A stretch of DNA of 64,000 nucleotides from assembly GCA_963749075.1 (NCBI GenBank), contig CAVVLJ010000020.1, positions 192,001-256,000 of the forward strand. The letters run 5' to 3'. A program made the position numbers and the translations under genes. Below the pieces are notes generated by a model. It worked only from the letters and a program-made list of their open reading frames with translations, did no database searches and was not told where the DNA came from. Of this stretch, positions 40,366 to 57,946 are shown in pieces (position 1 is the first letter of the stretch; each line of letters starts with the position of its first letter). This stretch comes from an uncultured Pseudomonadota bacterium (GTDB lineage: Bacteria > Pseudomonadota > Alphaproteobacteria > JACZXZ01).

Positions 40366-40549
40366 GCGCGGCCCGACGGCCTCGTTCTCCGCTCGAGCGC
40401 CGCAGAAGGCCATTCCGCCGCACCCCGTCTTCATGCTAGAGTGAGCTTGTTCTACTAACGAGTCACGCCTGCGAGCCGGCGATTGCTCAAGCGCGCGATG
40501 GCCTGGCGGCGCAAAGCAAGACAAGAAAAGCGCGCTTGGGAGGTCGGCC

Positions 40550-42175
40550 ATGTTCACGCAAATCCTGAATCCCACGGGGAATCTGTTCCTCACCTGGCTG
40601 GTGGCGCTCGTCCCCGTGGCGCTCCTTCTCATCCTCCTGGCCGTATTCCGCATGACGGCCTGGCTTGCCGTGCTGATCGGCTCGCTCGTCACCTTCGCGC
40701 TCGCCGCGGTGGTGTGGGGGATGCCGTTCGGCGACGGCGTGCATGCCTATGTCTACGGCTCGCTCACCGGCATCTGGGCGGTCGACTGGATCACCGTCTG
40801 GGGCGTCATGCTGTTCAACACGCTGATGGTGACGGGCGTGTTCGAGAAGTTCCGCCGCTGGCTCATCGCGCAAGGGACGGCCGACGTGCGCGTGCAGACC
40901 ATGCTCTTCGCCTGGGCCTTCGGCGCGCTGCTCGAGGGCCTGGTCGGCTTCGGCTATCCCTGGGCCTTCGTGGCGCCCATTCTCATCACGCTCGGGATTC
41001 CCGACCTCGATGCCATCCGGGTTGCCGCCATCGCCAACAACGCGCCGGTCTCCTATGGCGCGCTCGGCGCGCCGATCATCGCCCTTGCCGCGGTGACCGG
41101 CCTGCCGCTCCTCACCCTCTCGAGCTCGGTCGGCCACGTCGTGGCCGTGCTGGCGCTGCTGCCGCCCTGGGTGCTGCTCTATCTCGTGAGCGGCAGGAAG
41201 GGCATGCTGGAGGCTTGGCCGCTCGCCGTGGTGGGCTCGCTCGGCTACATCGCCGGCCAGCTGCCGGTAGCCGCCTACCTCGGCCCCTACCTGCCCGACG
41301 TGGCGGGCGCCATCGTCTGCTTCGCGGTCCTGCTCCTTCTCCTCAAGGTGTGGCGTCCGGCGACCGTGCTCGGCTACGGCGGCAAGCCGGTCTCCGCGGC
41401 CGACCAGGCCAAGCTCGCCGGCGGCGAGCACGGGCTCAGCGCCGGCGAGGTCTTCCAGGCCTGGCTGCCCTTCATCGTGCTGATCATCATCGTGGTCCTA
41501 TGGACCGGCCCGTGGTCGCCCATCCCGGGCTACGTCCCCCTCAAGCTCGCGGTGACGGCGGGCTCCTCCATTAATCCCGGCGCCAAGGTCGCCGCCGCCT
41601 TCAACTGGGCGCCAGGCATCGGCGGCAGTGCGATCATGGCCTCCTGGATCGTGGTGGCGCTCATGTTGAGGCTCAGCGGCGCGCAGCTCCGGGAGGTGTT
41701 CAAGCGCACCTGGGGCCAGATGTGGGGCGCCTGCCTGGTCGGCGTCTTCATCTTCGGGCTGGCCTTCGTCTTCAACTTCTCGGGCATGGCCGGCTCGCTC
41801 GCCTACGGCTTCTCGAAGATCGGCGTCTGGTTCATCATCGTGGCGCCCATCCTCGGCTGGATCGGCGTGGCGCTCTCGGGCAGCAACACCTCGACGAACG
41901 CCATGTTCGGCGCCTTCCAGATGACGGTCGGCAAGCTGCTCGGCTTCCCGGTGACGCTGCTGCCGACGCTCAACTCGGTCGGTGCCGAGATCGGCAAGCC
42001 CATCGCACCCCAGACGGCGAGCGTGGGCGTCTCCACGAGCCGCTTCGTGCGCAACGAGGGCGAGGTGATCCGCCACAACATGGGCTGGACCTTCATCCTG
42101 CTCATCTACCTCATCGTCATCGGCGTCGCGTTCTATTTCTTCTTTCCGCAGATCATCTGGCTCGGCCACAGCTGA
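40550..42175 (+). CDS. L-lactate permease family
   Basis: FGALLEGLVGFG, APVSYGALG, LSGSNTSTN, GKPIAPQ. Confidence 0.92.
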   Translation: MFTQILNPTGNLFLTWLVALVPVALLLILLAVFRMTAWLAVLIGSLVTFALAAVVWGMPFGDGVHAYVYGSLTGIWAVDWITVWGVMLFNTLMVTGVFEKFRRWLIAQGTADVRVQTMLFAWAFGALLEGLVGFGYPWAFVAPILITLGIPDLDAIRVAAIANNAPVSYGALGAPIIALAAVTGLPLLTLSSSVGHVVAVLALLPPWVLLYLVSGRKGMLEAWPLAVVGSLGYIAGQLPVAAYLGPYLPDVAGAIVCFAVLLLLLKVWRPATVLGYGGKPVSAADQAKLAGGEHGLSAGEVFQAWLPFIVLIIIVVLWTGPWSPIPGYVPLKLAVTAGSSINPGAKVAAAFNWAPGIGGSAIMASWIVVALMLRLSGAQLREVFKRTWGQMWGACLVGVFIFGLAFVFNFSGMAGSLAYGFSKIGVWFIIVAPILGWIGVALSGSNTSTNAMFGAFQMTVGKLLGFPVTLLPTLNSVGAEIGKPIAPQTASVGVSTSRFVRNEGEVIRHNMGWTFILLIYLIVIGVAFYFFFPQIIWLGHS

Positions 42176-42376
42176 TCTGAGCGCCGCGTATCGTTCGCGC
42201 CGTAGCGAAGCGTAAGCGCGCCGGGCTCCCGCCCCCGAGCTTGGCGCGCGCGCCGCGTCATCCTCCCGTTCGCGGAGGGGGAGCGCGGCCGAACGCGTCG
42301 ATGCCGAATAGGACTTGTCTCGCGCGGCCGCGCCCGCTTAAGTCTCGTGACAAAGCAAGCGAGCGAGGTGCCGCAC

Positions 42377-43282
42377 ATGAAGACGACCGGATGGATGCTT
42401 GTTCTCGCCGCCCTGTGGGCGGCGCCGTGGGCGCCGCCGAGCGCGCCTGCCGCCGCGGCCGAAGCGCTGGCCGCGGCGCCGCCTCAGCTTGCCGCCCCCT
42501 TGCCGGCGGACATCAAGAGCCGTGGCAAGCTGGTGATGGGAGTGAAGTGCGACTACCCGCCCTTCGGCTATGTGGACGCCGCGGGCAAGAACGCCGGCTT
42601 CGAAATCGACGTGGTGCGCCAGTTCGCCGCTGACGCGTTCGGCTCGCCCGGCGCCGTCGAGCTCGTGTGCGTGAGCGGGCCGAACCGCATCCCCTACCTC
42701 ACGAGCGGCAGGGTCGACGGCATCGTCTCGGTGCTCTCCTGGACGCCCGACCGTGCCAAGGTCATCGGCTTCTCGATCCCCTATTTCGATTCCGGCATCC
42801 GGCTGCTCGTGCCCCAGGGATCGCCGATCAAGGATTGGGGCGACCTCAAGGGCAAGACGATCACCACGACCAGCGGCGGCACGCAGAGCATCTGGCTCAC
42901 CAAATGCATGCCTGACGTGAAGCAGCTGCTTTTCGACAACACGGCCGACTCGCTCTCGGCGCTCAAGCAAGGCCGTGCCGTGGCCTTTCCCCAGGACCTC
43001 ACGCTCCTCGTCGGCATCGTGACCAAGGACCCGACGCTCAAGATCGCCGGCCACAGCGTGGCGCGCGGGCCCTTCGGCGTCGGCGTCAAGCTCGACAACA
43101 AGGCGCTGGCCGCCTGGTTCGACGCCGCCATCGCCGAGATGACGAAGGAGGACTTCTTCTGGCAGGCGCTCGCCAGGCACGTGCCCAAGGAGGCTCTCGA
43201 CCAGTTCAAGGCGGCGGTGCCGCGCCCCGGCCAGCCGGCCATCTCCTACAAGGAGGCCGAGGACATCTACGCTTGCGACTGA
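42377..43282 (+). CDS. Amino acid ABC substrate-binding protein
   Basis: DYPPFGY, NRIPYLTSGRVD. Confidence 0.9.
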   Translation: MKTTGWMLVLAALWAAPWAPPSAPAAAAEALAAAPPQLAAPLPADIKSRGKLVMGVKCDYPPFGYVDAAGKNAGFEIDVVRQFAADAFGSPGAVELVCVSGPNRIPYLTSGRVDGIVSVLSWTPDRAKVIGFSIPYFDSGIRLLVPQGSPIKDWGDLKGKTITTTSGGTQSIWLTKCMPDVKQLLFDNTADSLSALKQGRAVAFPQDLTLLVGIVTKDPTLKIAGHSVARGPFGVGVKLDNKALAAWFDAAIAEMTKEDFFWQALARHVPKEALDQFKAAVPRPGQPAISYKEAEDIYACD

Positions 43283-43298
43283 GCGGAGAGCGTCGCCC

Positions 43299-43967
43299 GT
43301 GAATTTCGGCTACGCCCTCGACCCCGGCTACATCGTAGCGCACCTCGCGGATCTTGCCGCGGGTCTCTTGTGGACGCTGGCGCTGACCGCCATCGGACTT
43401 GCCGGCGGCTCGGCGCTTGGCCTTATCGGCGGTGCCGTGCGCGCCTATCGCGTCCCGCTCCTCTCGCCCCTCGTCGGCGGCTGCGTCGAGCTCATCCGCA
43501 CCACGCCGCTCTTCGTGCAGATCTTTTTCCTCTACTTCGGGCTTCCGGACTTAGGCGTCAGGGTCTCCGGCTTCGCGGTGGCCAGTGCGGCGCTGGTGAT
43601 CTGGGGGGCTGCCTACAACGTGGAGAATTTCCGCGCCGCGCTCGAGGCGGTGCCGCGGCCCTATCGCGAGGCGGCTCGCGCCCTCGGGCTGCGGCCGCTC
43701 CAGGCCTTCCTCGCCGTGGCCTTGCCGGTCGCCTGCCGCATCGCCATGCCGTCCGTCACCAACACCAGCGTGGAGACGCTGAAGAATTCGGCACTCATGC
43801 TCGCCATCAGCTTTCCCGAGCTCACCGACACCGCGGTCAACCTGGTCGCGGTGAGCTTCCGCGTCTTCGAGGTCTTCATCACGATCGGCGCCGTCTATCT
43901 CCTGCTCGCGGCCGGGCTCACGCGGGCCATGCGCGGCCTCGAGCGCCGCCTCGCCTGGCCGGTCTGA
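43299..43967 (+). CDS. Amino acid ABC permease
   Basis: IRTTPLFVQ, ENFRA, LKNSA. Confidence 0.9.
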   Translation: MNFGYALDPGYIVAHLADLAAGLLWTLALTAIGLAGGSALGLIGGAVRAYRVPLLSPLVGGCVELIRTTPLFVQIFFLYFGLPDLGVRVSGFAVASAALVIWGAAYNVENFRAALEAVPRPYREAARALGLRPLQAFLAVALPVACRIAMPSVTNTSVETLKNSALMLAISFPELTDTAVNLVAVSFRVFEVFITIGAVYLLLAAGLTRAMRGLERRLAWPV

Positions 43968-43970
43968 GCC

Positions 43971-44630
43971 GTGCCCGATTGGGTCCCGCCGGTCGCCGCC
44001 TACATGGCCCAGGGTCTGGCCACGACGCTGCTGCTCGCGCTCGTCTGCTCGCTCGCCTCGGTGGCGCTCGGCACGCTCCTCGGCGTGGCCATGATCGCCG
44101 AGCTCCCCCTCTTGCGGCGCGCCCTCCGCCTCTACATCGAGCTGTGGCGCGGGCTACCGCTCATCGTCATCCTCTTCTTCGTGTTCTTTGCCCTGCCGGC
44201 CGCGGGCCTGCGCCTGAGCGCCGTCGCGGCGGCCGGGGTCGGCCTCAGCCTCTGGGGCAGCGCCGTCGTCGCCGACAACGTGCGCGGCGCCATCGCATCG
44301 CTCCCGCGCGGCCAATTCGAGGCCAGCCGCGCGCTTGGCCTCCACTGGATCGCCACCATGCGCTGGGTCATCCTGCCGCAGGCGGTGCGGAGACTCTTGG
44401 CGCCGACGCTCAATCTCCTGACCTCGCTCATCCACGGCACCTCGCTGGCGGCGCAATTGGGGGCGCTCGAGCTCCTCGAGGCGGCGCGGCGCTCGATCCA
44501 GCGCCTCGTGCTCGATGCCGGCCAGCCGCACAGCTTCGCGATCTTCGGCGCAGTGCTCGTCGTCTTCTTCCTGGTCTGCTATCCCCTCATCAGCCTCTCG
44601 CGCCGGCTCGAGCGGCGCCTGCAGCTCTGA
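43971..44630 (+). CDS. Amino acid ABC permease
   Basis: WRGLPLIV, GQFEASRALG. Confidence 0.9.
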   Translation: MPDWVPPVAAYMAQGLATTLLLALVCSLASVALGTLLGVAMIAELPLLRRALRLYIELWRGLPLIVILFFVFFALPAAGLRLSAVAAAGVGLSLWGSAVVADNVRGAIASLPRGQFEASRALGLHWIATMRWVILPQAVRRLLAPTLNLLTSLIHGTSLAAQLGALELLEAARRSIQRLVLDAGQPHSFAIFGAVLVVFFLVCYPLISLSRRLERRLQL

Positions 44631-44640
44631 GCGGCGGGCG

Positions 44641-45786
44641 ATGGCCAGGACCACGGTGCGCGCAATGGAGAGCTTTCGCGGCTATCTCCGTCCGGACGGC
44701 CTCGTCGGCACGCGGAATCTGCTGCTCATCGTGGCGCTCTCCGATCTGGCTAACGGAATCGCCGCGCGCCTTGCGGAGAATACGGCGGGTGCCGTGGCCC
44801 TTCTGACGCCCGCGGGCGGGCTCTCCTTCGGCGAGGAGGCCCGGCTGATCGCCCGCTTGCGCGTGCGCATGTGGGCCAACGCGAATGTCGGGGCCGTGCT
44901 CGCCCTTGGAACGGACGAGGCCGAGTTGAGGGCAGTCTCCGACGCCGTGGCGCGCGCGCGGAAGCCCGTCGAGACGCTCTCGCTCCTGGACACGCTCGAC
45001 AGTCCGGGCACCATGCGTGCCGGCCGAAGCATCGCAGAGCGCCTCCTCGCCGGTCTCGCGCGGGAGCGGCGCCGCGAGGTGGCGCTCTCCGGCCTCTCCA
45101 TCGGGCTCAAATCGAGCGCCAGCAGCGCCAGATCGGCGCGGCTCGTCAATCCGGCCGTGGGCCGGCTTGTGGACGCCCTCGCGCGCGCGGGCGGTACCGT
45201 GGTCGCGACGGAGCTGGCCGATCTCGCGGCTGCCGCGGATGCCCTCGCCGCACGCGCGACAGGGCGCGAAGTCGCCGCCGCGGTCAGGGCGGCCCTCGAG
45301 CGGCCGCGGCACCTCCTCGCCTCGCTCGGTGCCGCGGCACCCGACCCCACGCCGATGAACCGCCTCGGCGGCCTCGCCACCATCGCGGAGAAGGGCGCTA
45401 CGGCGCTGAAGCGCCTCGGCCGCGCGCCGATCTGCTCGCTCATTCCCTATGGCGAGCCGCCGCAAGGCTCGGGCCTCCATCTCATGGCGGGGCCGGGATC
45501 GGCCGCGGTCTCGCTCGTCGGCCTCGCCGCCGCGGGTGCGACTCTCGTCGTCCACACGGTCGGCCTCACCAGCGCGACGCCGCCCTCGCCGCTCGTCCCC
45601 GTCGTCAAGATCGGCGGTCCCCTGCTCGCCGCAAGCCGGGAGCTCGATCTCGCCGTCACGGGCGGCGCCGGACATGGGCCGGCGCTCATCGCGGCCGTGC
45701 TGCGCGCGGCGTCGGGGAGGCGCACTGCGAGCGAGCGCGCCGATGGCAGTACCGTCATGCTGCCAAGCCAGCTGCCACCGCTCTGA
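44641..45786 (+). CDS. UxaA/GarD/SuyB-family dehydratase large-subunit homologue, degenerate
   Basis: FRGYLRPDGLVGTRN, NPAVG, GGLATIAEKG, PVVKI. Confidence 0.75.
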   Translation: MARTTVRAMESFRGYLRPDGLVGTRNLLLIVALSDLANGIAARLAENTAGAVALLTPAGGLSFGEEARLIARLRVRMWANANVGAVLALGTDEAELRAVSDAVARARKPVETLSLLDTLDSPGTMRAGRSIAERLLAGLARERRREVALSGLSIGLKSSASSARSARLVNPAVGRLVDALARAGGTVVATELADLAAAADALAARATGREVAAAVRAALERPRHLLASLGAAAPDPTPMNRLGGLATIAEKGATALKRLGRAPICSLIPYGEPPQGSGLHLMAGPGSAAVSLVGLAAAGATLVVHTVGLTSATPPSPLVPVVKIGGPLLAASRELDLAVTGGAGHGPALIAAVLRAASGRRTASERADGSTVMLPSQLPPL

Positions 45787-45876
45787 TGGTGCAGCCGCGA
45801 GCGGAGCGCTGGCGACCGATTGCGTTGGCCTATCCCATTGCGCCGAAGGCGGGCAATCGGAGGCGATTTCACGGAC

Positions 45877-46860
45877 TCAGGCTGTCGACGGCACGGACGA
45901 GCTGGGCCTGGGCGGCGTCCCGGGCGGCGTTTGCGAGCTTCGCTTCACGATTTGCAGAGCGGTTGCCACCAGCGCGCCGACATTGCCGAGTTCGGCCGGG
46001 ATGATCATGGTCGTGCTCTGCTTGGCGAGATTGCCCCATTTGTCGATGAAATCCTTGGCGAGCTGCATCTGCAGCGCTTCGATGCCGCCTTCGACGACCG
46101 CCGCCGTGGCGATGGCGCGGATGGCATCGGCGGTCGCCGAGGCGACCAGCTCAATGGCCTTGGCTTCGCCTTCGGCGCGCAGTATCTCGGCTTGCCGGCG
46201 CCCGTCGGCGAGGTTGATCTCCTGCTGACGCTGGCCCTCGGAGGTGTTGATCTGCTGCTGGCGCTGGCCTTCCGATTTGAAGATCATCGCGCGCTTTTCC
46301 CGTTCCGCCGTGATCTGCAGCTCCATGGCGTGCAGGATTTCCGCCGGCGGAGTGATGTCCTTGATCTCGTAGCGCAGCACCTTGATCCCCCAGTTGACGG
46401 CGGCCTCCTCCACCGCCGCGGCGACCGCGGCATTCAGCATCTGCCGCGAGGACAGGGCCTGGTCGAGATGCAGCTTGCCGATCTCCGAGCGCATGCTGGT
46501 CTGCGCCAATTGCATTGCGGCGTTCATCGGATTGCTCGAGCCATAGGCCGCCTTCACCGCATCGGTGATCTGCAGATAGAGGAAGCCGTCGACGGTGAGG
46601 GTGGTGTTGTCGAGCGAGATGCAGACCTGCGCCGGCACTTCCGAGGGCACTTCGCGCAGGTCGAAGCGGTACGCGACGCGGTCCGCGAAGGGCACGAGGA
46701 CGTTCAACCCCGGCGTCAGGGCGCGGTGGAAGCGGCCGAGCCGCTCGACGATCCACGACTGCTGCTGCGGCACGATGCGCAGCGCCGAGCGGAGCACCGC
46801 GATCCCGAGGACCAGAAGAAGAATGAAGGGGATGAACGACGCGAGAAACTCGTCCCGCAT
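45877..46860 (-). CDS. SPFH/stomatin-like protein (QmcA-like)
   Basis: IVERLGRF, AQTSMRSEIG, RYEIKDI, AEREKRA. Confidence 0.93.
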   Translation of the reverse strand: MRDEFLASFIPFILLLVLGIAVLRSALRIVPQQQSWIVERLGRFHRALTPGLNVLVPFADRVAYRFDLREVPSEVPAQVCISLDNTTLTVDGFLYLQITDAVKAAYGSSNPMNAAMQLAQTSMRSEIGKLHLDQALSSRQMLNAAVAAAVEEAAVNWGIKVLRYEIKDITPPAEILHAMELQITAEREKRAMIFKSEGQRQQQINTSEGQRQQEINLADGRRQAEILRAEGEAKAIELVASATADAIRAIATAAVVEGGIEALQMQLAKDFIDKWGNLAKQSTTMIIPAELGNVGALVATALQIVKRSSQTPPGTPPRPSSSVPSTA

Positions 46861-46879
46861 GATGCGTCTCCTCGAATGC

Positions 46880-47320
46880 CTATGACTGCGCCGCCTCGGG
46901 CGACGGGGAAAGATGCAGGAGCTTGTCGGTCTTGCGCGTGATGAAGGCCGTAGTGCCGGGAGCGGGGGCGGCGGTGCCTTCCATGACGGCCTCCCAATTC
47001 GTGCCGCGATAGCTCACCAAAACGTGGTTTTCCTGCGGCAATACGCTGACGACCGTCACGCGCTGGCCGATGTCGAAATCGACGAGCTGCTTGCTGCGCG
47101 CGAGACGCCGCCGGTAGAGCATGACCGCGGCCGTGACGATCGCACAAAGCAGCACGAACGCCAAGATCAGCAGGTCGCCCGAAACCCAGAAGCCGATCGC
47201 GACCGCGAGGAGTGCAGCGCCGGCGACGCCGGCAAGATAGAAGGTGCCGGTGTGCAGCTCGGCCAGTGCGGCGGAGAGGGCGACGACGAGGAAAAGCCAT
47301 TGCATGGGCGAAATGCTCAT
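46880..47320 (-). CDS. NfeD-family membrane protein
   Basis: AELHTGTFYL, VSYRGTNWEA OB-fold; next to the SPFH gene. Confidence 0.88.
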   Translation of the reverse strand: MSISPMQWLFLVVALSAALAELHTGTFYLAGVAGAALLAVAIGFWVSGDLLILAFVLLCAIVTAAVMLYRRRLARSKQLVDFDIGQRVTVVSVLPQENHVLVSYRGTNWEAVMEGTAAPAPGTTAFITRKTDKLLHLSPSPEAAQS

Positions 47321-47556
47321 TCGGACGGGCTCTTCAGTCCCGGGCAGATTGCCAGCGCGCTGCGCCCGATCGCGAGATCTCCAGCAGTTTCTTCGCGGCG
47401 CAGATCTCCATCGGGCGCCGGCGTCATCACGGCAGGCACCGCCCGCCGCCGGTAGCATGCTCTCTCGCGGCACAGAGAGCAATCCCGCGCGTCGGTAATG
47501 GTACAGTTTGAATTTCTGGGTCTCTCGCGCCCCGCTCCCCTCGTGACCGGAGCCGT

Positions 47557-47575
47557 GCCATACTTAGAGTATGGC
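47557..47575. promoter_or_regulatory. Palindrome over an extended -10 and the start codon
   Basis: GCCATACT-TAG-AGTATGGC; TGcCATACT lies 6 nt before ATG 47571. Confidence 0.55.
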
Positions 47576-47795
47576 CATCAAGCGACTCAAACGTCCGCGC
47601 GACCCGCTCCAGCTCGCCAAGCTCATTGGTGATATTGCGACTGGGCAAGTTGCTGATAGGGCAGAAGATACCCGAAGCGCCGCCGCCGTCGAATTAGGCC
47701 AAAAAGGCGGCAAAGCGCGTGCAGCAAAATTGTCAAAAGAAAGACGAAAAGAGATCGCAAGTGCCGCAGCTCGGCGTAGATGGGGACATAAGTAA
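47571..47795 (+). CDS. Small basic KGG-motif protein at the transposon left end
   Basis: KRPRDPLQLAKLIGDIATG...LGQKGGKARAAKLSKERRKEIA. Confidence 0.8.
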   Translation: MAIKRLKRPRDPLQLAKLIGDIATGQVADRAEDTRSAAAVELGQKGGKARAAKLSKERRKEIASAAARRRWGHK

Positions 47796-47801
47796 TCTTG
47801 G

Positions 47802-48383
47802 TTAACTGCGCTTTGGGAGGAGCGGATTATCAGGTAAATTTGGAAGTGGCAGCGTCGGTATTACAAGTGCTGTGCCGGCCCCAAGACCGGGAAATGGGAA
47901 TAGCGGATTAGCAGCTCCCGCTGATTGTGGTTCCACCCGCAATGTTCCAAGTCTAATGATCTTATCGCCATAATCGGCGCGGACTTTAATTCGTCCCGCC
48001 TGAATCAAAATCATTGGTGACATAACAAACAGCGTGTTTATAGTGAAAAGCTCTGGCAAGTCTGGGTCAGGAGGCAGCGTAGTGGTCTTAAAAGTTTCGT
48101 CCACTGTCGCTTTATTAGCAGGAATTTCTCCGCCTACATTTGGTTTATCGGGGGCGTTACCGGGCAAGAAAATTTTGATTGTGATGCTCCAATCCCGATT
48201 TTCTGCCATTTTACGCGGTTCATTAAAGGTCGTCGCAATTCCGAACTTTGGCACCACCATTGGAAAAGCCGGCACGTAAATAACGGCGTTGTAAACGCCG
48301 ATGTAACTTGCCTTGTTACCAACCTCCGAACGAATGTCGTCACAAAAGATGGACGAGCCAAACGGTTCATCAAATTTGGACAT
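47802..48383 (-). CDS. DUF6941-like beta-rich protein
   Basis: IFCDDIRSEVGNKASYIGVY motif. Confidence 0.7.
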   Translation of the reverse strand: MSKFDEPFGSSIFCDDIRSEVGNKASYIGVYNAVIYVPAFPMVVPKFGIATTFNEPRKMAENRDWSITIKIFLPGNAPDKPNVGGEIPANKATVDETFKTTTLPPDPDLPELFTINTLFVMSPMILIQAGRIKVRADYGDKIIRLGTLRVEPQSAGAANPLFPFPGLGAGTALVIPTLPLPNLPDNPLLPKRS

Positions 48384-48387
48384 TTGT

Positions 48388-48840
48388 TCAGCCTGACGTA
48401 GGTGTCCCCAGCAGATCACTGTATGCAATGCCGGTGGCGCCCCTAGTGGTTAGCATTGCCGCGTTAGGACCCGTGATATAGATCACGGCTCCTGCTGATG
48501 ACGAGGATAACCAATCAGGGTGCCGATAATTGCGCGGAGGCTCCTCAAGGGGGTGGACGATACTGTATCCTGCTTCCGCATGCGAAATGGCAAAAAGCAG
48601 ATCGCTCAAGGTATCAAGGCCCCAATTGCCCGGCGCACCGATTAAACGACACACAACGTCTGGTCGCTTATTCATCCGACGCGCCAGTTCAGCCTGAGTA
48701 AGGCCGCTCTTCTTGAATTCATTCAGCACAAGATCATGCACGCGGCTCCTGTTCCTAGCCTGAAAATAGGCGAACTCCCAAGCCGGGATCGCCCCTGTTC
48801 CCGTGGGGCTAAACGGGCTCAAAGTTGGAGAGGTAGTCAT
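48388..48840 (-). CDS. XRE/HigA-like HTH protein with a C-terminal extension
   Basis: SGLTQAELARRMNKRPDVVCRLIGAPGNWGLDTLSDL. Confidence 0.8.
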   Translation of the reverse strand: MTTSPTLSPFSPTGTGAIPAWEFAYFQARNRSRVHDLVLNEFKKSGLTQAELARRMNKRPDVVCRLIGAPGNWGLDTLSDLLFAISHAEAGYSIVHPLEEPPRNYRHPDWLSSSSAGAVIYITGPNAAMLTTRGATGIAYSDLLGTPTSG

Positions 48841-49336
48841 TGAGGCTGGCTCCGTGGAACGGTTGATGTGGATGAAAGAGATTCCTCCATCTGGCCTTAC
48901 ATCGTTCGATCTCATCGCGCCAATCTTTGTCTTCAGCCAAATTCTCCCGAAAGTTAACGGTCAGCGCCACGAATAGATCTTTATCTGCAAAGCCACCAAG
49001 CACTCTGATCCCCGGTTTCGGATCAACGCATCGAATATCAAAAATGTCGTCCCTGGGCGGGTCTGTCCGTGCGACCCGGGTGGCCTTTGGCTTCTTATAG
49101 GGATCGTCGGCGACGGTTATGCGATCCCCCTGGGTCCAGGCATCCAAATAGGCTCGCATCTGCGTTAGCCGCCGTCCCTCTGTTGTCACCGGCCATGGCG
49201 GGTGTGCGACCTTATTGACCTCCTCGGAAACAAACAGCTCCCGTATCACCTTAGCGCTCGGAATGAGCGGCGGCAGGAAGAACAGCCGAGGAGGCACCTC
49301 GCTGACACGGTTATTGATTCCATCGCGTATTGACAT
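48809..49336 (-). CDS. Putative RelE/HigB-like toxin
   Basis: IFDIRCVDPKPGIRVLGGFADKDLFVAL beta-meander; overlaps the downstream HTH gene. Confidence 0.55.
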   Translation of the reverse strand: MSIRDGINNRVSEVPPRLFFLPPLIPSAKVIRELFVSEEVNKVAHPPWPVTTEGRRLTQMRAYLDAWTQGDRITVADDPYKKPKATRVARTDPPRDDIFDIRCVDPKPGIRVLGGFADKDLFVALTVNFRENLAEDKDWRDEIERCKARWRNLFHPHQPFHGASLNDYLSNFEPV

Positions 49337-49346
49337 ATAAGTCAAT
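49329..49346. promoter_or_regulatory. Putative operator overlapping the toxin start
   Basis: ATTGAC-N6-GTCAAT perfect inverted repeat. Confidence 0.6.
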
Positions 49347-49430
49347 GAGAGAAATATTAAAGGACCTTACGCGCGATGGTAGCGCAATGCAGCTAGTAGA
49401 GTCCCGCATACATTCGTCAAAAGAAATTGC

Positions 49431-49459
49431 TTGACGCTAAGCATAAAATGACAGATACT
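49431..49459 (+). promoter_or_regulatory. Sigma70-like promoter of the transposase (likely leaderless)
   Basis: TTGACG-N17-GATACT, 6 nt before ATG 49466. Confidence 0.6.
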
Positions 49460-49465
49460 AGGGGC

Positions 49466-50416
49466 ATGAACAAATTGTCCCCTGAGAAGCGCGCCCAAAT
49501 CCTCGGCATGATGGCCGAAGGGGTTTCGTTGCGGTCGATCACACGCCTAACTGGCGTGAGCCGGACAACCTCCCTCAAGCTGCTGGTCGATGTCGGCAAC
49601 GCCTTCTCGGACTATCAGGATCGCGCGCTTCGCAACTTTCCGTGCAAGCGCGTGAAGGTTGACGAAATTTGGGCGTTCGTCGGGATGAAGGCGAAGAACG
49701 TTCCCGAGGAAAGGAAGGGCGAATACGGCATCGGGGACGTTTGGACATGGACGGCAATTGATGCGGATACGAAGCTCGTGCCGTCCTGGTTCGTCGGGAA
49801 CCGCGATGCCGAGCACGCGCGGACCCTCCTAAGCGATCTTGCAGGCCGCATGGCCGGTCGCATCCAACTAACGTCAGACGCCATGCGCGCCTATCGGGAC
49901 GCGGTACATGACGCGTTCCTAGACGAGATCGACTATGCCCAGCTCGTCAAGATTTACGGCGAAGACCCGGAAAGTATGAAGGGGCGCTATAGTCCCGCCG
50001 AGCGCATCGGCTGCGAGCGCCAGAAGATCAGCGGGAACGCTGATCCAAAGCATATCAGCACTTCTCACGTCGAGCGGCAGAACCTCAATATCAGAATGGG
50101 GCTGCGCCGCTTCACGCGCTTGACCAATGCATTTTCAAAGAAGCTCGAAAACCATGTGCACGGCCTCGCCATCTACTTTATGTACTACAACTTCGTTCGC
50201 ATCCATCAAACATTGCGCGTCACCCCCGCGATGGCAGCCGGCGTAACCGACAAGCTTTGGGAGCTAAGCGATTTGGTTCGGATCGTGGAAGAATACGAGC
50301 GTGAGCCCGTCTCGGACGCCGACGCACCATCCGATATAGATCGCCTTTTGAGCGACGCCGACGGCTATATGCGACGCCCAGGACACCCCGACCAGCACGG
50401 CCCGCAGCGAACCTAA
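49466..50416 (+). CDS. IS1-family DDE transposase
   Basis: N-terminal HTH (EGVSLRSITRLTGVS), VDEIW, LTSD, HVERQN..R..RRFTRLT..FSKK. Confidence 0.9.
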   Translation: MNKLSPEKRAQILGMMAEGVSLRSITRLTGVSRTTSLKLLVDVGNAFSDYQDRALRNFPCKRVKVDEIWAFVGMKAKNVPEERKGEYGIGDVWTWTAIDADTKLVPSWFVGNRDAEHARTLLSDLAGRMAGRIQLTSDAMRAYRDAVHDAFLDEIDYAQLVKIYGEDPESMKGRYSPAERIGCERQKISGNADPKHISTSHVERQNLNIRMGLRRFTRLTNAFSKKLENHVHGLAIYFMYYNFVRIHQTLRVTPAMAAGVTDKLWELSDLVRIVEEYEREPVSDADAPSDIDRLLSDADGYMRRPGHPDQHGPQRT

Positions 50417-50465
50417 TCATCGGAGATCGCGAGGACCCGGATTTTTTCGGCGAATCGATCACAGA

Positions 50466-51332
50466 ATGCTGAAGCGGCTGTTAAAAGCTTTTTGGGTTGC
50501 CTTGTTCGCGTGTCTGGTGCTCGGATACGTCTCTCTGGTTTGGTATGCATCACAAGCGCCCGGGTCATCGCAATACGAACGCCGCACCTACCATACCAAT
50601 GAAAAAGCCGGCCAGCGCAACCCACCCCAAACCCTTTGGGAATGGGTGACGCATGACGCAATAGCTGTCTTCACTTTCTTCCTGGCCGCCTTTACCGGCG
50701 CGCTCTTCTGGGTTTCCATCATTGAAATGCGATACCTGAGACGCGCCGATAAGACGGCACGGAAACTCGCGAAAATCACCAAACAACAGACTGCTATTTT
50801 GGCCGCTCAAGCCGATATCGCATTGAAGCAGCATGAACTCGAGCGCTTGCAGTTTATCGCCGACAAGAGGCCGAGATTGCGCATCCGGAACGTTGTTGTG
50901 AGGCCGGCAAGCGTCACGGGCTATGAGCCGACCCTTTTCCATCCCGGACAATATGTCGGTGGTCAATGCTATATCGCCAACTCTGGAGGCATCGACGCTG
51001 TTGTTGTGGAGGCTCACTGTGAGGTCTTTGTGACTAACGTTCAGCTGCCAATGGAAAGGCCCTACGAAGGGAAAAACGGCAATTCGGCGATCCGCCCAAC
51101 GATTCCTCCCGGCGGTTCTGTGCCATTCCCATTTCAGAGCGATACCATTATCAGCGAACACCAGTCGCAGGCGGTCAGGAACGGCATTGGTTATCGGCTT
51201 TACTTGCTTGGATGGGTTGAATACGAAGACATCAAGGGAGTGCGAAGACGTACTGCGTTCTGCAGGAAATATGATGCCGCCACCGGTCGCTTCGCCGCAG
51301 TAGATGACCCCGATTACGAACACGAAGAATAG
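50466..51332 (+). CDS. Hypothetical membrane-anchored cargo protein
   Basis: Two TM segments, a coiled coil and a beta-rich C-terminal domain. Confidence 0.7.
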   Translation: MLKRLLKAFWVALFACLVLGYVSLVWYASQAPGSSQYERRTYHTNEKAGQRNPPQTLWEWVTHDAIAVFTFFLAAFTGALFWVSIIEMRYLRRADKTARKLAKITKQQTAILAAQADIALKQHELERLQFIADKRPRLRIRNVVVRPASVTGYEPTLFHPGQYVGGQCYIANSGGIDAVVVEAHCEVFVTNVQLPMERPYEGKNGNSAIRPTIPPGGSVPFPFQSDTIISEHQSQAVRNGIGYRLYLLGWVEYEDIKGVRRRTAFCRKYDAATGRFAAVDDPDYEHEE

Positions 51333-51388
51333 GATGGCGCCGCGCGACGTTCGGGGAATTCGGCATAATTGTCGAAACTGACCCACTA

Positions 51389-53294
51389 GTGCGCCAGGAA
51401 GCTGGCGTGATCCAGCCGGTGAAAGTCCGGCCCAGGTAAGGGGTAGCGCCCGCCTGGTAGCGAGTGTTGCGCTGTGGAAGGCAACGACCACGGCGAAGCG
51501 TACACAGCGATTGTGCGGGGTGGGCTATTGAGCCGCGTAAGCAGTAATGTCGGAGGGGCCGAGGCTTTTAGTGTAGCCGAAGGCAACATGTGCGGCGCCG
51601 CTATGCGAGGCGCCGTCGCCCTACCGAGGTCGAAGACCCCATCACGCACAAAGGGAGCCCGCCGGAACCTGGGAGATCCCACGTCCGGCCAGCGGCGACA
51701 AGCCGCCCTGGTCCGCATCGGGAAGGCGAGGAGCCGTAGCCGATGACGCACGGGCGCGGGAAGTCAGACTCCGCCATAGTAGCTGGGAAGCCGACGAACA
51801 AGGCCGGGCAATCGGTTGCGGAGCCGGTGGAGCGAAGGGCGGAGGCCAAGGGGAATGCGGGCCAGCACAGCACGCGCCGGGCACAGGACCGGGAAAGCGT
51901 GTCCCATGCGCTGGATCGCATACGACAAGCGGCAAGGCAAAGGAAGAAGGAACGGTTCACCTCGCTCTTCCACCATATCACCATCAGCCTGCTCCGGCTG
52001 GCGTTCTTCGCGCTCAAGCGAGACGCCATGCCCGGCGTAGACGGGTTGACATGGCAGGACTACGAGGCAGACCTCGAGTGCAAGCTCGAGGACCTGCACG
52101 CACGGGTCCGCCGGGGAGCGTATCGGGCACTGCCGTCCCGGCGACGGTACATACCGAAACCGGACGGCCGGCAGCGCCCGCTCGCGGTCGCCGCCCTCGA
52201 GGACAAGATCGTCCAACGGGCGACCATCGCGGTGCTGAACGCGATCTACGAGGAGGACTTCCTCGGGTTCTCGTATGGCTTCCGGCCACGGCGCGGCCAG
52301 CACGATGCGCTGGACGCACTGGCGGTCGGGCTCACCAGCAAGAAGGTGAACTACGTTCTCGATGCGGACATCCGGTCCTTTTTCGACGCGGTCGATCAAA
52401 CATGGCTCGTCCGCTTCTTGGAGAACCGGATCAGTGACCCGCGTATCATCCGCCTGATCCAGAAATGGCTCAAGGCGGGCATCCTGGAAGACGGGGTCGT
52501 GACGGTGAGTGAGAGGGGGACGGGACAGGGCTCGGTGGCATCACCGCTCCTTGCCAACGTCTACCTGCACTACGTCTTCGACCTCTGGGCCGAGCGCTGG
52601 CGACGGCGCGAGGCACAGGGCGATATGATCATCGTGCGCTATGCGGACGACATCGTTGTCGGCTTCGAGCGTGAGGCCGACGCCCGACGCTTCTGGGAGG
52701 CGATGCGGGAGCGGTTGCAGGAGTTCTCGCTGACGCTGCATCCGGAAAAGACCCGCCTGATCGAGTTTGGCCGCCATGCCGCGGCCGAGCGCAAGCAGCG
52801 CGGGCTCGGTAAACCGGAAACCTTCAACTTCCTAGGCTTCACCTTCCTCTGCGGTAAATCGCGCCGCGGGAACTTCCTCCTCAAGCGGAAGACCCGGCGT
52901 GACCGCATGGTGGCCAAGCTCAAGGAGGTAAAGGGCGAACTGCGGCGGCGGATGCATCAGCCCATCCCGGTGCAAGGGACGTGGCTGCGGCAGGTCGTCA
53001 CCGGCTTCTTTGGCTATCACGCAGTGCCGACAAACTTCCCGGCACTTGCGGCCTTCCGGCGCCATGTCACCGGCCTCTGGCGGCGCACGCTCCGGCGGCG
53101 CAGCCAGAAGGACGGCTCGACCTGGGGACGGATCGAGAAGCTGGCCGACGACTTTCTCCCAAAACCCCGCATCCTTCACCCCTGGCCGAGCAAGCGCTTC
53201 GCCGTCAAACACCCGAGGTGGGAGCCGTATGCGGGAAATCCGCCCGTACGGATCTGTGCGGGGGGCGCCCAGTAATGGGCGTCCCTACCGCGAT
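51389..53294 (+). mobile_element. Group II intron
   Basis: 5' GTGCG; domain V GAGCCGTATGCGGGAAATCCGCCCGTACGGATC; domain VI hairpin with bulged A; 3' end AT; encodes an RT. Confidence 0.93.
51743..53275 (+). CDS. ltrA: Group II intron reverse transcriptase/maturase, no HNH domain
   Basis: IPKPDGRQRPL, SYGFRP, DADIRSFFD, GQGSVASPLLANVYL, RYADD, FNFLGF. Confidence 0.95.
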   Translation: MTHGRGKSDSAIVAGKPTNKAGQSVAEPVERRAEAKGNAGQHSTRRAQDRESVSHALDRIRQAARQRKKERFTSLFHHITISLLRLAFFALKRDAMPGVDGLTWQDYEADLECKLEDLHARVRRGAYRALPSRRRYIPKPDGRQRPLAVAALEDKIVQRATIAVLNAIYEEDFLGFSYGFRPRRGQHDALDALAVGLTSKKVNYVLDADIRSFFDAVDQTWLVRFLENRISDPRIIRLIQKWLKAGILEDGVVTVSERGTGQGSVASPLLANVYLHYVFDLWAERWRRREAQGDMIIVRYADDIVVGFEREADARRFWEAMRERLQEFSLTLHPEKTRLIEFGRHAAAERKQRGLGKPETFNFLGFTFLCGKSRRGNFLLKRKTRRDRMVAKLKEVKGELRRRMHQPIPVQGTWLRQVVTGFFGYHAVPTNFPALAAFRRHVTGLWRRTLRRRSQKDGSTWGRIEKLADDFLPKPRILHPWPSKRFAVKHPRWEPYAGNPPVRICAGGAQ

Positions 53295-53438
53295 CCCGCG
53301 CGTCCGCCTTGGGATGGCGGCGGCTTCCGGCGATTGTCCGAAAAGCGTCATGGGCGGCCCTGCCGGAAAGCGGCCTCATGTCCGCAAACCAGCCATCGCA
53401 GGCATGGCGGCCGAAACCCCGCCCTGCCATGCGAGTTT

Positions 53439-53467
53439 TTGACAAGCGCGCCGCAATCGCATAGCTT
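53439..53467 (+). promoter_or_regulatory. Sigma70 promoter
   Basis: TTGACA-N17-TAGCTT. Confidence 0.7.
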
Positions 53468-53473
53468 GCTGCC

Positions 53474-53551
53474 ATGCGCGGGAAGAACCTCATGGTGGCC
53501 ATTAACCAGTCGCTCGGCGGCGCCGATGCGGGCGGGGGTCCCATGCGCTGA
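53474..53551 (+). CDS. Putative leaderless leader peptide (25 aa)
   Basis: ATG 6 nt after the -10; MRGKNLMVAINQSLGGADAGGGPMR*; precedes a terminator. Confidence 0.5.
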   Translation: MRGKNLMVAINQSLGGADAGGGPMR

Positions 53552-53577
53552 TCGCGGCAAGAGCGACGAGTTCCCCG

Positions 53578-53612
53578 AGCCCCGCCAGCGCCTCTGACGG
53601 GGCTTTCGTTTT
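53578..53612 (+). terminator. Intrinsic terminator (attenuator) upstream of the ABC exporter
   Basis: AGCCCCGcCAG-loop-CTGaCGGGGCT followed by TTCGTTTT. Confidence 0.75.
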
Positions 53613-53633
53613 GCGGCAAAGGGACGTGGAGCC

Positions 53634-54638
53634 ATGAGCGCCATTACCGTCGAGCGCCTGAGCAAGAGCTTCCGCGTGCGCCCGCCGCGGCGGCGCGGTG
53701 CCTGGGCGGCGCTCTTTCGGCCGCGGCCGGCGGAGGACGTGCCCGCGGTCAGCGACATCTCCTTTGCCATCGGGCGCGGCGAGCGCGTCGCCTTCATCGG
53801 CCCCAATGGCGCCGGCAAATCGACGACGCTCAAGATGCTGACCGGCATTCTCAGGCCGAGCGGCGGCCACGCCGAGGTCGCGGGCTTCGTGCCCTGGCGC
53901 GAGCGCCGCCGCCTCGCCGGCCGCATCGGCATCGTCTTCGGCCAACGCTCGCAGCTCTGGTACCATCTGCCGGTCCAGCACAGCCTCGAGCTCTTGCGCC
54001 ACGTCTACGGCATCGAGCGCGCGGCCTATGACGCGCGCTTGGCCGCCCTCGTGCGCGGCTTCGAGATCGCGGACCTCCTGGCACGGCCGGTCTCCGAGCT
54101 CTCGCTCGGCCAGCGCGTCCGCTGCGAGATCGCGGCAAGCCTCCTCCATGCGCCTGCCGTGCTGCTCCTCGACGAGCCCACCATCGGGCTCGACGTGACG
54201 GCCAAGGCGGCGCTGCGCGACCATCTGAACGCCCTCGCGCGGGAGGAGGGCACCACGGTGCTCCTCACCTCGCACGACACCGGCGACATCGAGCGCATCT
54301 GCGAGCGCGTCATCGTCATCGACCAGGGCCGGCTCCTCCTCGACGAGCCGCTCGAGCGGCTGCGCCGGGATTTCTTCCAGCACCGTTCCGTCGTCGTCGT
54401 CACGGCGGAGGAGCATCCGAGCCTGGCGCTGCCCGGCGTCGCCGTGACCGCGGCCGAGCCCTACCGGCTCTCGCTCAGCGTCGATACGTCGATCGCGGCG
54501 ATCGAGACCGTGGTGGCCGCGGCACTTCGGCGCTTCGCCGTGCGCGACCTCGTCATCGAGAACCCGCCTTTGGAGGACATCGTCAAGGCGATCTACCGCG
54601 GCGTGGGAAAAGGAGCGCCGGGCCATGAGCCGCACTGA
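53634..54638 (+). CDS. ABC-2 exporter ATPase
   Basis: GPNGAGKST, VFGQRSQL, LSLGQR, DEPTIGLD. Confidence 0.93.
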   Translation: MSAITVERLSKSFRVRPPRRRGAWAALFRPRPAEDVPAVSDISFAIGRGERVAFIGPNGAGKSTTLKMLTGILRPSGGHAEVAGFVPWRERRRLAGRIGIVFGQRSQLWYHLPVQHSLELLRHVYGIERAAYDARLAALVRGFEIADLLARPVSELSLGQRVRCEIAASLLHAPAVLLLDEPTIGLDVTAKAALRDHLNALAREEGTTVLLTSHDTGDIERICERVIVIDQGRLLLDEPLERLRRDFFQHRSVVVVTAEEHPSLALPGVAVTAAEPYRLSLSVDTSIAAIETVVAAALRRFAVRDLVIENPPLEDIVKAIYRGVGKGAPGHEPH

Positions 54639-55422
54639 GCTCGGCGCCCTCGCCGCCTTCGCGGCACTCGGCTGGAGACGCGCCGCGGCCGAGCGCGCGG
54701 CGACGCTCGGCCGCCTGCTGCTCTACGGGTTGATCCTCGTCATCTTCTGGGAACTCTGGCAGGCGACGCCCTTGGCCGAGCTCGCGGAGCCGGGAACGGA
54801 TGCCCGGCATCTCTTCTGGTATATGGCCGTGACCGAGTGCGTCGCCATCGCCACGGGCTATCCCTACCGCGCCCTCGAGATCGCCATCCAGAGCGGCGAG
54901 ATCGCGAGCGCCTTGACCCGGCCGCTCCCCTATGCGCTGGCGACCCTCGCCGAATGGGCCGGTGCGACGGGCCATCGCCTGCTCGTCCTCCTCGCCGCGG
55001 GGGTGGCACTGGGCGTTGCCGTCACCGGCACGTTCCCCGTCCCGCTCGCGGATGCTCCGGCGCTCCTCCTCTCGATAGCGCTCGCCTCTCTGATCGTGCT
55101 GCTCTGCCAGCTCCAGCTCGGCTATGCCGCGGCCTGGACGGGCTCCGCGGCGCCGCTCTTCTGGATCTGGCAGAAGCTCATGTTCGTCTGCGGCGGCCTG
55201 ATCATCCCCTTGACGCTCTATCCGGCACCTCTCGGGACGCTCGCCAAGGCAACGCCCTTTGCCGCAATGCTGTTCGCACCCGGCTCGCTCGTGCTCGAGG
55301 CAACTCCGGCCGCAGCGGCGGCGGCGCTCGCTTGGCAGCTCGCCTGGCTCGTGCCGGTGGCTGCCGCGGCGTTCCTCGTCGACCGCGCGGCAGCCCGGCG
55401 CTTCGCCGTGCGCGGCATCTGA
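54625..55422 (+). CDS. ABC-2 family permease (DUF990-like)
   Basis: IQSGEIASALTRP, GGLIIPLTLYP. Confidence 0.85.
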   Translation: MSRTELGALAAFAALGWRRAAAERAATLGRLLLYGLILVIFWELWQATPLAELAEPGTDARHLFWYMAVTECVAIATGYPYRALEIAIQSGEIASALTRPLPYALATLAEWAGATGHRLLVLLAAGVALGVAVTGTFPVPLADAPALLLSIALASLIVLLCQLQLGYAAAWTGSAAPLFWIWQKLMFVCGGLIIPLTLYPAPLGTLAKATPFAAMLFAPGSLVLEATPAAAAAALAWQLAWLVPVAAAAFLVDRAAARRFAVRGI

Positions 55423-55434
55423 GGGGGGAAGCCC

Positions 55435-56226
55435 ATGCGGCCCAAGAGCTCGCTCGCCTACCTTCTGGCGCTCGCCCGCATCAACATCGCGGCGGGTTTC
55501 GCGCGGCCGTACCTGGCACTCGTCTCGGCCGCCATGATGCTCGGCAACAACCTCATCTTCTTCCTCATCTGGGTGATCTACTTTGCCAGGTTCTCAAGCT
55601 TGCGCGGCTGGGTGCTCGAGGACTTGGCGCTCCTCATCGGCGTCGTCGCCTGGGCTTTCGGGCTCGCCGTCTTTCTCGCGGGCGGCGTGCGCGATCTCGC
55701 GCACATCATCGTCGACGGCAGGCTCGACATCCATCTCGGCCGCCCGCGCCATCCGCTTCCCGCACTCCTCATGAGCCGCTCGCTTCCCTCGGGTCTCGGC
55801 GACATGGCGAGCGCGCTCGTCTTCTGGCTCTGGCTCGGCCACGAAGGCTTGGGCGAGCTGCCGCTCCTCCTCGCCGTGTCGACGGCGGCGGCGGTGGTTT
55901 TCGCGGCGACGCTCACGCTCAGCCAATGCATCGTGTTCTGGTTTCCCGGCGCGCTCTCGCTCTGCGAGGAGCTTTACAACATGCTGCTCATGGTTTCCTA
56001 CTACCCGCAGCACCCTTACGGGTTCGCGGTGCGGCTCGTGCTCTTCACGGTCTTCCCCACCGCCTTCATCGGATTCCTTCCGGCCGAGGCGATGCGCGCG
56101 CACGACCCGCTCGAGGCCCTGGCCGTGCTCGCTGCCGCCTTCGTCTATGCCGGCCTTGCCGTGGCGGTCTTCGAGCGCGGGCTCAGGCGCTACGCCTCGG
56201 GCAACCGCGTGCTCGAGCTGCGCTGA
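55435..56226 (+). CDS. ABC-2 family permease (DUF990-like)
   Basis: GRLDIHLGRP, C-terminal GLRRYASG. Confidence 0.85.
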   Translation: MRPKSSLAYLLALARINIAAGFARPYLALVSAAMMLGNNLIFFLIWVIYFARFSSLRGWVLEDLALLIGVVAWAFGLAVFLAGGVRDLAHIIVDGRLDIHLGRPRHPLPALLMSRSLPSGLGDMASALVFWLWLGHEGLGELPLLLAVSTAAAVVFAATLTLSQCIVFWFPGALSLCEELYNMLLMVSYYPQHPYGFAVRLVLFTVFPTAFIGFLPAEAMRAHDPLEALAVLAAAFVYAGLAVAVFERGLRRYASGNRVLELR

Positions 56227-56231
56227 GCGGC

Positions 56232-57866: not shown

Positions 57867-57946
57867 CGCGTGCTCCACGGCTGCGGCGATAAGGGCGCAC
57901 ACTAGCAGGACGGCCGTCCCTGTCGAGAGGCGAGGCGGGCGCGGCG

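Follow-up and report, generated by a model that had tools for sequence, protein, structure and literature searches.

A 64,000-nucleotide window of contig CAVVLJ010000020.1, from an uncultured Pseudomonadota bacterium, carries three tightly packed minus-strand genes (here termed g1, g2, and g3) beside the gene for an IS1-family transposase. A first-pass annotation had taken these genes for a candidate toxin-antitoxin-chaperone (TAC)-like defence system, in which a DUF6941-like protein replaces the SecB-like chaperone. The locus hence raises the question of whether the three genes constitute a toxin-antitoxin (TA) unit, and what the third of them contributes to it, as an uncharacterised DUF6941 protein occupies the SecB-like position and is conserved together with an unnamed toxin-like family of 1211 representatives. 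The answer that we favour, tentatively and at somewhat less than an even chance for the account as a whole, is an autoregulated three-gene TA-type operon located in the cargo slot of a truncated IS1-family transposon and working by the mechanism proposed below. Its parts are held with different confidence, which is stated where the evidence for each is given.

A conserved three-gene module and its palindrome

The candidate toxin gene g1 (48809–49336, minus strand) encodes 175 amino acids (aa) from an ATG at 49336. It is followed by g2 (48388–48840, minus strand, 150 aa), which encodes an XRE-type helix-turn-helix (HTH) protein as candidate antitoxin and repressor, and by g3 (47802–48383, minus strand, 193 aa), which encodes the DUF6941 protein. 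The first two genes overlap by 32 nt (48809–48840), and a 4-nt spacing separates the second from the third (48384–48387). The start codons are backed by homologue alignments, which begin with MSIRDEI for g1, MTTS for g2, and M..FDEPFG for g3. The GC content across the three genes is 0.46–0.56, against 0.63–0.77 in the surrounding DNA. The initial description of three packed AT-rich genes was hence accurate in its location, overlap, gap, and base composition.

The co-occurrence of the three genes was evaluated in two sets of related loci, whose open reading frames (ORFs) were searched with three family profiles. The g1-anchored set consisted of one plasmid locus (L001) and ten genome loci (L004–L013); the latter were retrieved with a 13-sequence g1 alignment, a narrower query that probably limited the reach to these ten. 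For the g3-anchored set, seven plasmid records were matched, of which five were taken (L002, L003, L014, L015, and L016) while H4 and H7 were left out. A g2 gene followed g1 in all 11 g1-anchored loci, and a DUF6941-like third gene followed g2 in nine of them; the contig of L009 ends inside g2, and the third gene of L012 leaves its contig but carries the g3 motif described below. All five g3-anchored plasmid loci exhibited the full triad in the same order, with a very divergent first gene (g1-profile E-values of 3.3e-3 to 3.8e-15). The first-pass annotation had staked its reading on the three genes being conserved together, and this held, since the g1-g2-g3 order was found in 14 of the 16 related loci. 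The triad ranges over Rhizobium, Bosea, Hyphomicrobium, Bauldia, Stellaceae, Caulobacteraceae, and Rhodospirillaceae. The coupling of g2 with g3 is tight in all loci (a 4–5-nt gap or an overlap), and no g1-g2 pair devoid of a third gene was found among the ten informative g1-anchored loci. The likely arrangement is a core of HigBA type whose third gene is obligatory. At L011, in a deltaproteobacterial genome, the third gene is an unrelated one of 228 aa (4922–5608), which overlaps g2 by 4 nt and whose product had no Pfam match. Several metagenomic homologues were also located on contigs of equal size (P0007, P0078, and P0060 on 4969; P0082 and P0062 likewise on 2218), which suggests their co-location.

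The palindrome ATTGAC-N6-GTCAAT, or ATTGACATATAAGTCAAT, is positioned at 49329–49346, so that it covers the ATG of g1, and is a candidate operator for g2. A search for ATTGACATATAAGTCAAT allowing ≤1 mismatch gave this sole match in the 64 kb, while shuffled sequence gave 0.03 matches on average (3 of 100 shuffles contained one). Among 12 g1-family loci, namely the window and 11 others, the core TTGACTTATATGTCAA is exact in ten; the exceptions are L007, with one change in the spacer, and L011, with a symmetric change in both arms (ATGAC...GTCAT). The block TGACTTA(T/A)ATGTCA across the start codon was observed in all 12, and the DNA upstream of the palindrome diverges among them. The palindrome is retained even where g1 identity is only 31–39%, so that the M-S-I start of g1 is near-invariant probably owing to a constraint at the DNA level. 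In the divergent plasmid triads L002, L003, and L016, the palindrome sequence was not present. The best reading of this element is a putative operator for a dimeric HTH protein. The palindrome described earlier over the first start codon is real, being the single such site of the window, and its retention at all 12 g1-family loci far exceeds chance. An HTH gene adjoining a candidate toxin gene, together with a conserved palindrome at the operon 5′ end, is the arrangement expected for type II TA autoregulation. No obvious Shine-Dalgarno sequence was found before the g1 ATG. A weakly recurring C-T-T-(A/C)-A-C-like motif was noticed 12–14 nt upstream of the palindrome in about 6–7 of the 12 loci (49350–49375 of the window, minus strand), and may be a promoter element. 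An RNA hairpin was also considered for the palindrome and rejected; a 6-bp stem forms, yet the region is no stabler than its shuffles (z −0.54).

The candidate toxin and its HTH partner

The g1 protein had no match in Pfam, NCBIfam, PADLOC, or PHROGs. A word-based search of metagenomic sequences gave 58 relatives, and a full profile search retrieved the 1211 representatives at E ≤ 1e-3, 834 of these at 1e-10, for a family that is unnamed. Over 147 diverse members, residue R111 is invariant, and R32, F67, R102, G114, F116, F122, R130, and W150 are near-invariant. The AlphaFold model of g1 (pLDDT 96.2, pTM 0.91) was compared with the PDB by using Foldseek, in which the best match was HigB of S. 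pneumoniae (E 0.017, prob 0.98, target TM 0.54–0.59), and the other top neighbours were V. cholerae HigB2, M. tuberculosis HigB1, and YoeB. These toxin matches extended over E-values of 0.017–0.12 and target TM values of 0.41–0.59, with a prob of 0.60–0.98 for the first eight and lower for some later ones; the remaining PDB matches listed were tyrosine phosphatases with TM near 0.1. Gp49 (PF05973, HigB-type) was the sole recurring Pfam family for g1 relatives, appearing in 2 of 30 and in 12 of 147 members with a best E of 0.004. Among the Atlas clusters that bear a name, the closest was a ‘RelE/ParE family toxin’ with Gp49 on 28% of its members, whose score of 0.78 serves as a lead only. Because the Foldseek neighbours, the sub-threshold recurrence of Gp49, and the Atlas cluster agree, each of them being weak, we consider that g1 probably adopts the RelE/HigB-like fold predicted by its model. 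The fold call, which had been offered tentatively, thus obtained weak but convergent support.

Several observations weigh against such an assignment. No PDB match of g1 in the Foldseek search reached E ≤ 1e-3, and the TM values are modest (0.54–0.59 on the target and ~0.4 on the query). Profiles of the g1 family built from two alignments and searched against PDB sequences gave chance HLA matches at E > 1 or nothing. Every Gp49 match of the family lies below the Pfam cut-off, with 0 Pfam hits for g1 of the window itself, and the catalytic residues of g1 could not be mapped.

Four of the ten genome copies of g1 were found to be disrupted, while g2 and g3 of the same loci were intact. One copy is interrupted by a nonsense codon, a TGA at codon 55 in L004 (4163–4165), and the other three by frameshifts, located near 4258 in L008, at ~4270–4342 in L009, and near 4340 in L012. 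Arithmetic from the gene lengths gives a chance of ~3% that all four breaks would fall in g1 if they were random over the three genes. Such restriction to g1 is compatible with counter-selection of a toxin. Against this, all four broken copies belong to metagenome-assembled genomes, one of them at 1.8x coverage, so that an assembly error is possible, and the six plasmid copies are intact. On balance, a TA core formed by g1 and g2 is rather probable. In the mechanism that we propose, g1 would be the toxin, of HigB/Gp49-like type, and, going by the fold alone, would most likely cleave mRNA in a ribosome-dependent manner.

The g2 protein consists of a conserved N-terminal segment, the HTH (~38–95), a P-x-W-L sequence near residue 110, and a variable tail (111–150). 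Its HTH is akin to those of antitoxins such as HicB and HipB, and its plasmid homologues are annotated as XRE family. The HTH matches are weak (Pfam HTH_3, E 0.21; phrog_1373 ‘transcriptional regulator’, 3e-6; HicB HTH in the PDB, 8.5e-4), and the poor scores against Pfam HTH models count against the assignment. The g2 family is large, with 177 metagenomic matches. Its relatives are alignable over the first ~110 residues, up to P-x-W-L, and unalignable beyond. Ser, Pro, Ala, and Thr abound in the tails, which are disordered and 13–75 residues long (median 39) in every g2 examined; that of the window contains the hydrophobic strand AVIYITG. The HTH protein with a low-complexity tail holding this strand was hence recognised correctly at the outset, with weak backing from Pfam. 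In the proposed mechanism, g2 would be an HTH antitoxin translationally coupled to g1, and its dimer would repress the operon at the palindrome over the g1 start codon.

This tail is the place where a strict analogue of the TAC systems can be weighed, in which g3 would be a chaperone dedicated to folding that binds AVIYITG as an aggregation-prone strand of the g2 tail, and the antitoxin would be degraded and the toxin would fire when g3 is lacking. Its gene order is that of HigB-HigA-SecB, g1 counts the M. tuberculosis TAC toxin HigB1 among its PDB neighbours, the third position is always occupied, and each g2 examined continues into a disordered tail after P-x-W-L. By eye, close g2 relatives retain a few consecutive hydrophobic residues ahead of a Gly or Glu, resembling AVIYITG. 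Alternation of hydrophobic residues was also modestly enriched over the last 15 positions (13 of 66 tails vs. 6.8 ± 2.4 in shuffles), a level reached by 7 of 500 shuffles. The hydrophobic patches themselves, however, were not enriched in the tails, since 32 of 66 had one compared with 36.4 ± 3.7 in shuffled tails, and a second count gave 9 of 66 compared with 14.4 ± 2.9. In two pairs of close loci, the tail was less conserved than its surroundings (57% identity vs. 86% for the g2 core and 77% for g3 in the first pair; 49% vs. 84% and 67% in the second). Furthermore, g3 is an Ig-like beta-sandwich without SecB similarity, its types are swapped among g1-g2 cores with no visible matching tail motif or tail co-variation, and DUF6941 proteins with the same invariant motif occur alone in phages. 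We therefore regard the strict analogue as unlikely. The chaperone-addiction tail ascribed to g2 by the first-pass annotation was not supported by this comparison, as the tails are unalignable and their hydrophobic patches are not enriched over shuffles.

The DUF6941 protein

The g3 protein passes the Pfam model of DUF6941 (PF22091; 32.6 bits with a cut-off of 27, E 1.2e-7) and was grouped with DUF6941 clusters in the Atlas (0.93). Among the other third genes, those of L001, L006, L010, and L013 pass this model as well, and that of L007 is below the cut-off (20.7 bits). An invariant N-terminal motif F-C-D-D-x-R-x-E ... G-V, which reads FCDDIRSE in the window, characterises the family, and a G-R-I-K-V-R-like strand is located near the end of the core. 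The model of g3 is an all-beta sandwich over residues 1–155 (pLDDT 86.8 overall, with the core mostly >90), followed by a disordered Pro/Gly-rich tail (156–193) that is absent in most homologues. A 20-nt direct repeat, 85% identical and 81 nt apart, was noticed in the tail region (47814–47833 and 47895–47914), which suggests that the tail arose through internal duplication. The model resembled only generic Ig, macroglobulin (complement MG), FnIII, and GH3 sandwich domains of the PDB (TM ≤ 0.33), and no SecB was contained among the 43 PDB fold matches listed. Against the viral models of BFVD, it matched five small uncharacterised phage proteins (E 3.6e-7 to 2.4e-4). Metagenomic sequences gave 17 homologues, and the literature search found no paper carrying the word DUF6941. 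The third protein is hence beta-rich, DUF6941-like, and not a SecB, with the CDDIRxE motif, just as it had been described from the letters of the window.

The similarity of g3 does not follow that of its neighbours. Between the window and L002, L003, and L016, 85–88% of the g3 core aligns with 33–38% identity, while g1 is only 24–29% identical. Between the window and L004–L008, the first 34 residues of g3 alone align, though g1 and g2 are 58–71% and 54–68% identical; here the g1 identities were 60–62% by script, and 71% and 70% from the locus search for two broken copies. This points to g3 as an exchangeable part, of which only the N-terminal motif is fixed, and the alignments indicate for g3 a history other than that of g1 and g2.

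This exchange also bears on a second alternative, in which g3 is autonomous and merely co-transcribed with an ordinary HigBA-type pair, acting as an effector or as a binder of some conserved component of host or phage, for example a protease or the ribosome, and being used alone by temperate phages. The pattern F-C-D-D-x-R-x-E ... G-K ... I-G-V-Y is invariant across g3 types that lie beside g1 and g2 only 24–29% identical, and at L011 the third position is taken by the unrelated gene. Pseudomonas phage MR15 retains the motif too, in its lone gp50c (L017, 2995–3414; profile E 6e-23), whose neighbours are small early genes and include neither g1 nor g2. Lone DUF6941-like genes were further found in the Pseudomonas phages MR13, phi2, and MD8, the relatives in phi2 and MD8 being weaker, and the five phage proteins of BFVD share the fold. 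Such retention of the motif in phage proteins without g1 or g2 points to a DUF6941 function independent of toxin and antitoxin, and counts against placing g3 on the antitoxin side. On the other hand, an autonomous g3 does not account for its tight coupling with g2 in all loci, nor for the lack of any g1-g2 pair without a third gene among the informative g1-anchored loci. We hence judge it to be rather improbable. One of the lone phage genes is annotated as a ‘putative Ig-domain containing protein’, and the phages are temperate.

In the three-gene operon that we favour, g3 would be an obligatory yet exchangeable third subunit on the antitoxin side, which keeps g2 stable or competent. Its variable surface would be an input site, such that the toxin would be released once g3 is lost or titrated away. 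The co-fold of full-length g2 with g3 scored 0.02 against a mark of 0.32, which speaks neither for nor against their binding. Action of g3 through the antitoxin is possible, though doubtful. If g3 does control the antitoxin, it would provide a role for DUF6941 and a second, independent solution to antitoxin ‘addiction’. A wider picture can be speculated, in which DUF6941 represents a new third-subunit class for HigB-type cores, with exchangeable members that act as guards or sensors; these would hold the antitoxin in place, while their variable beta-sandwich surface detects signals of phage or stress. The lone phage copies would then be silencing decoys, and the IS1-family transposon would disseminate the unit in soil Alphaproteobacteria, where it is one conflict cargo among several that can be interchanged. 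We think that this picture, taken in full, has a low probability.

Transposon carriage and relation to known systems

The transposase gene (49427–50416, plus strand; Pfam DDE_Tnp_IS1) is divergent from g1. Its product passes DDE_Tnp_IS1 with 33.8 bits (cut-off 24.1) and is below the NCBIfam cut-off for transpos_IS1 (71 bits, cut-off 100); its resemblance to relatives extends to about residue 308 at most, and the element lacks its far end. On the other side of the triad, a small Lys/Ala/Arg-rich gene (47571–47795, plus strand, 74 aa) is convergent with g3. It belongs to the core of the transposon and not to the triad, and its homologues occupy the same position in L005, L006, and L010, and are found also in transposon copies with other cargo (L018–L021), of which that of L018 is annotated ‘histone H1’. 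The window retains a single terminal inverted repeat (47494–47519), which begins GGTAATGGTACAGTTTGAAT and corresponds to the 26-bp repeats of the same seven loci. Its partner was not found in the window at ≤3 mismatches or by local alignment of 49301–58000, and a search for the ends of a composite transposon gave no convincing inverted repeats flanking the island in the window.

Complete copies were observed elsewhere. At L005, five genes are bounded by perfect 26-bp inverted repeats (2889–2914 and 5634–5659), and the transposon spans 2889–5659 there, ~1996–5921 in L006, and ~1186–4195 in L010. The 26-bp ends common to the transposon family read GGTAGTG.CTCAGTTTGAA..., and 8-bp target duplications were identified by eye from the flanks of L005 and L006, as well as L018, L019, and L021. 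The transposases beside g1 in L005, L006, and L010 are 50.6–52.6% identical to the window copy, and a remnant is present in L011. Plasmid relatives of the transposase amounted to nine records, annotated as ‘IS1 family transposase’, four of which were examined (L018–L021). All four have the same repeats and small gene, and three of them the 8-bp duplications, with no g1, g2, or g3; their middle slot contains an XRE-M78 (ImmA/IrrE) peptidase protein plus a hypothetical protein (three of four) or an SDH-type ClpP-like protease (one of four). As the same transposon carries other cargo in this slot, the triad appears to be one of several interchangeable cargoes. The comparison thus places the triad in the slot where an IS1-family transposon carries its cargo, a carriage that is new here. 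The single repeat in the window shows its copy to be truncated, and this copy is probably immobile. The suggestion that the genes travel as transposon cargo has hence been substantiated by complete copies with inverted repeats and target duplications. The transposon itself is a concrete vehicle with an exchangeable slot, which could be mined for further conflict systems.

The palindrome sits within the 90-bp gap between g1 and the transposase gene. On the plus strand, one of its arms reads as a −35-like TTGACA, located 17 nt from AATATT and oriented toward the transposase gene. This would allow the triad to be a regulatory or maintenance cassette of the transposon instead of a toxin system, with g1 an inactive HigB fold and the HTH protein and palindrome mainly controlling the transposase; the weak fold evidence and unmapped catalytic residues of g1 fit such a cassette as well. 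The triad and its palindrome are, however, kept in seven of the 12 g1-family loci without an adjoining transposase, and no transposase was found in the three annotated records of the five divergent plasmid triads. In addition, the copies with other cargo dispense with g1, g2, and g3, and the breaks hit g1 only. We consider such a cassette highly unlikely. Under the three-gene TA-type operon preferred here, the palindrome may also influence the divergent transposase promoter.

The triad and transposase gene are included in a low-GC island of ~47.5 to 51.4 kb (GC 0.46–0.59). No tRNA gene that could serve as an integration site was found at 40000–60000 of the window. Adjoining the truncated transposase gene is a hypothetical gene (50466–51332, plus strand, 288 aa), for which no counterpart was found in the related transposon copies and whose product exhibited weak matches only, to BrxB-like (E 0.017–0.24) and spanin-like proteins. 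A complete group II intron (51422–53294, plus strand) is positioned just past the island, with Rfam matches to D1–D4 (51422–51639) and domains V/VI (53220–53294) and a reverse-transcriptase ORF at 51743–53275; it was the sole match of the Rfam scan near the triad.

A role of the triad in defence is possible but unsupported. PADLOC-DB v2 gave 0 hits for g1 and g3, and only PDC-M64C for g2 (E 2.2e-4, over the HTH); in the ten genome loci, the triad is flanked mostly by genes for housekeeping or metabolism. These findings lend no support to a defence setting. The triad of L016 adjoins a gene for an HEPN protein, and one transposon copy with other cargo adjoins Shedu and helicase/ATPase genes. The triads of L002 (Bosea) and L003 (Rhizobium CCGE532) are near the curli-like csgG/csgH/csgF, an association that is perhaps a coincidence. 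Overall, the first-pass interpretation held in part: the probable toxin fold, the joint conservation of the three genes, and their carriage on a transposon were supported, and the chaperone and defence roles were not.

In PMC11980606, gp49-family toxins are described as ribosome-dependent mRNases encoded in toxin-first (T/A) order. Like the Gp49/HigB pairs (PF05973), such as HigBA of S. pneumoniae and HigBA2 of V. cholerae, the module of the window has its toxin gene first, overlapping genes, a HigB-like predicted fold, an HTH antitoxin candidate, and a palindromic site at the operon 5′ end. It differs from these pairs in the size of g1, which is 175 aa compared with the 87–121-residue toxin chains of the PDB, with ~30 extra N-terminal and ~20 extra C-terminal residues. 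The score of g1 under the Pfam Gp49 threshold, the location of the palindrome on the start codon, and the conserved third gene are further differences.

The same source reports that the SecB-like chaperone of TAC systems protects the antitoxin, and that in E. coli HigBAC a phage tail protein disrupts the contact between antitoxin and chaperone (PMC11980606). The triad resembles TAC systems, namely HigB1-HigA1-SecB-like (Rv1955-57) of M. tuberculosis and HigBAC of E. coli, in its toxin-antitoxin-accessory order, its HigB-like toxin candidate, and the C-terminal extension of g2 beyond the DNA-binding domain. It departs from them in its third protein, where a DUF6941 beta-sandwich takes the place of the SecB-like chaperone. 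The g2 tail revealed no chaperone-addiction-like element that is either conserved or statistically enriched, and the third gene is exchanged among cores and was once replaced by an unrelated gene (L011). Since g3 is not SecB-like, the module is not a TAC member, though a TAC-like way of working can still be entertained. Other tripartite TA systems, such as pasABC, paaR-paaA-parE, and HipBST, add a third small protein to a type II core, which is a neutralisation enhancer, a separate regulator, or a split toxin domain. To our knowledge, none of these third components is a DUF6941 protein, and the SecB-like chaperone is the only accessory class well understood as a third partner of HigB-type pairs. 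The carrier is similar to IS1-family insertion sequences in its IS1-type DDE transposase, ends beginning GGTA.TG, and 8-bp target duplications, and is distinguished from them by a single-ORF transposase of ~290–330 aa, a fixed small Lys/Ala-rich gene, and an exchangeable slot between them. The triad is hence best filed as a HigB-like/HTH core with a DUF6941 third subunit, carried on an IS1-family cargo transposon.

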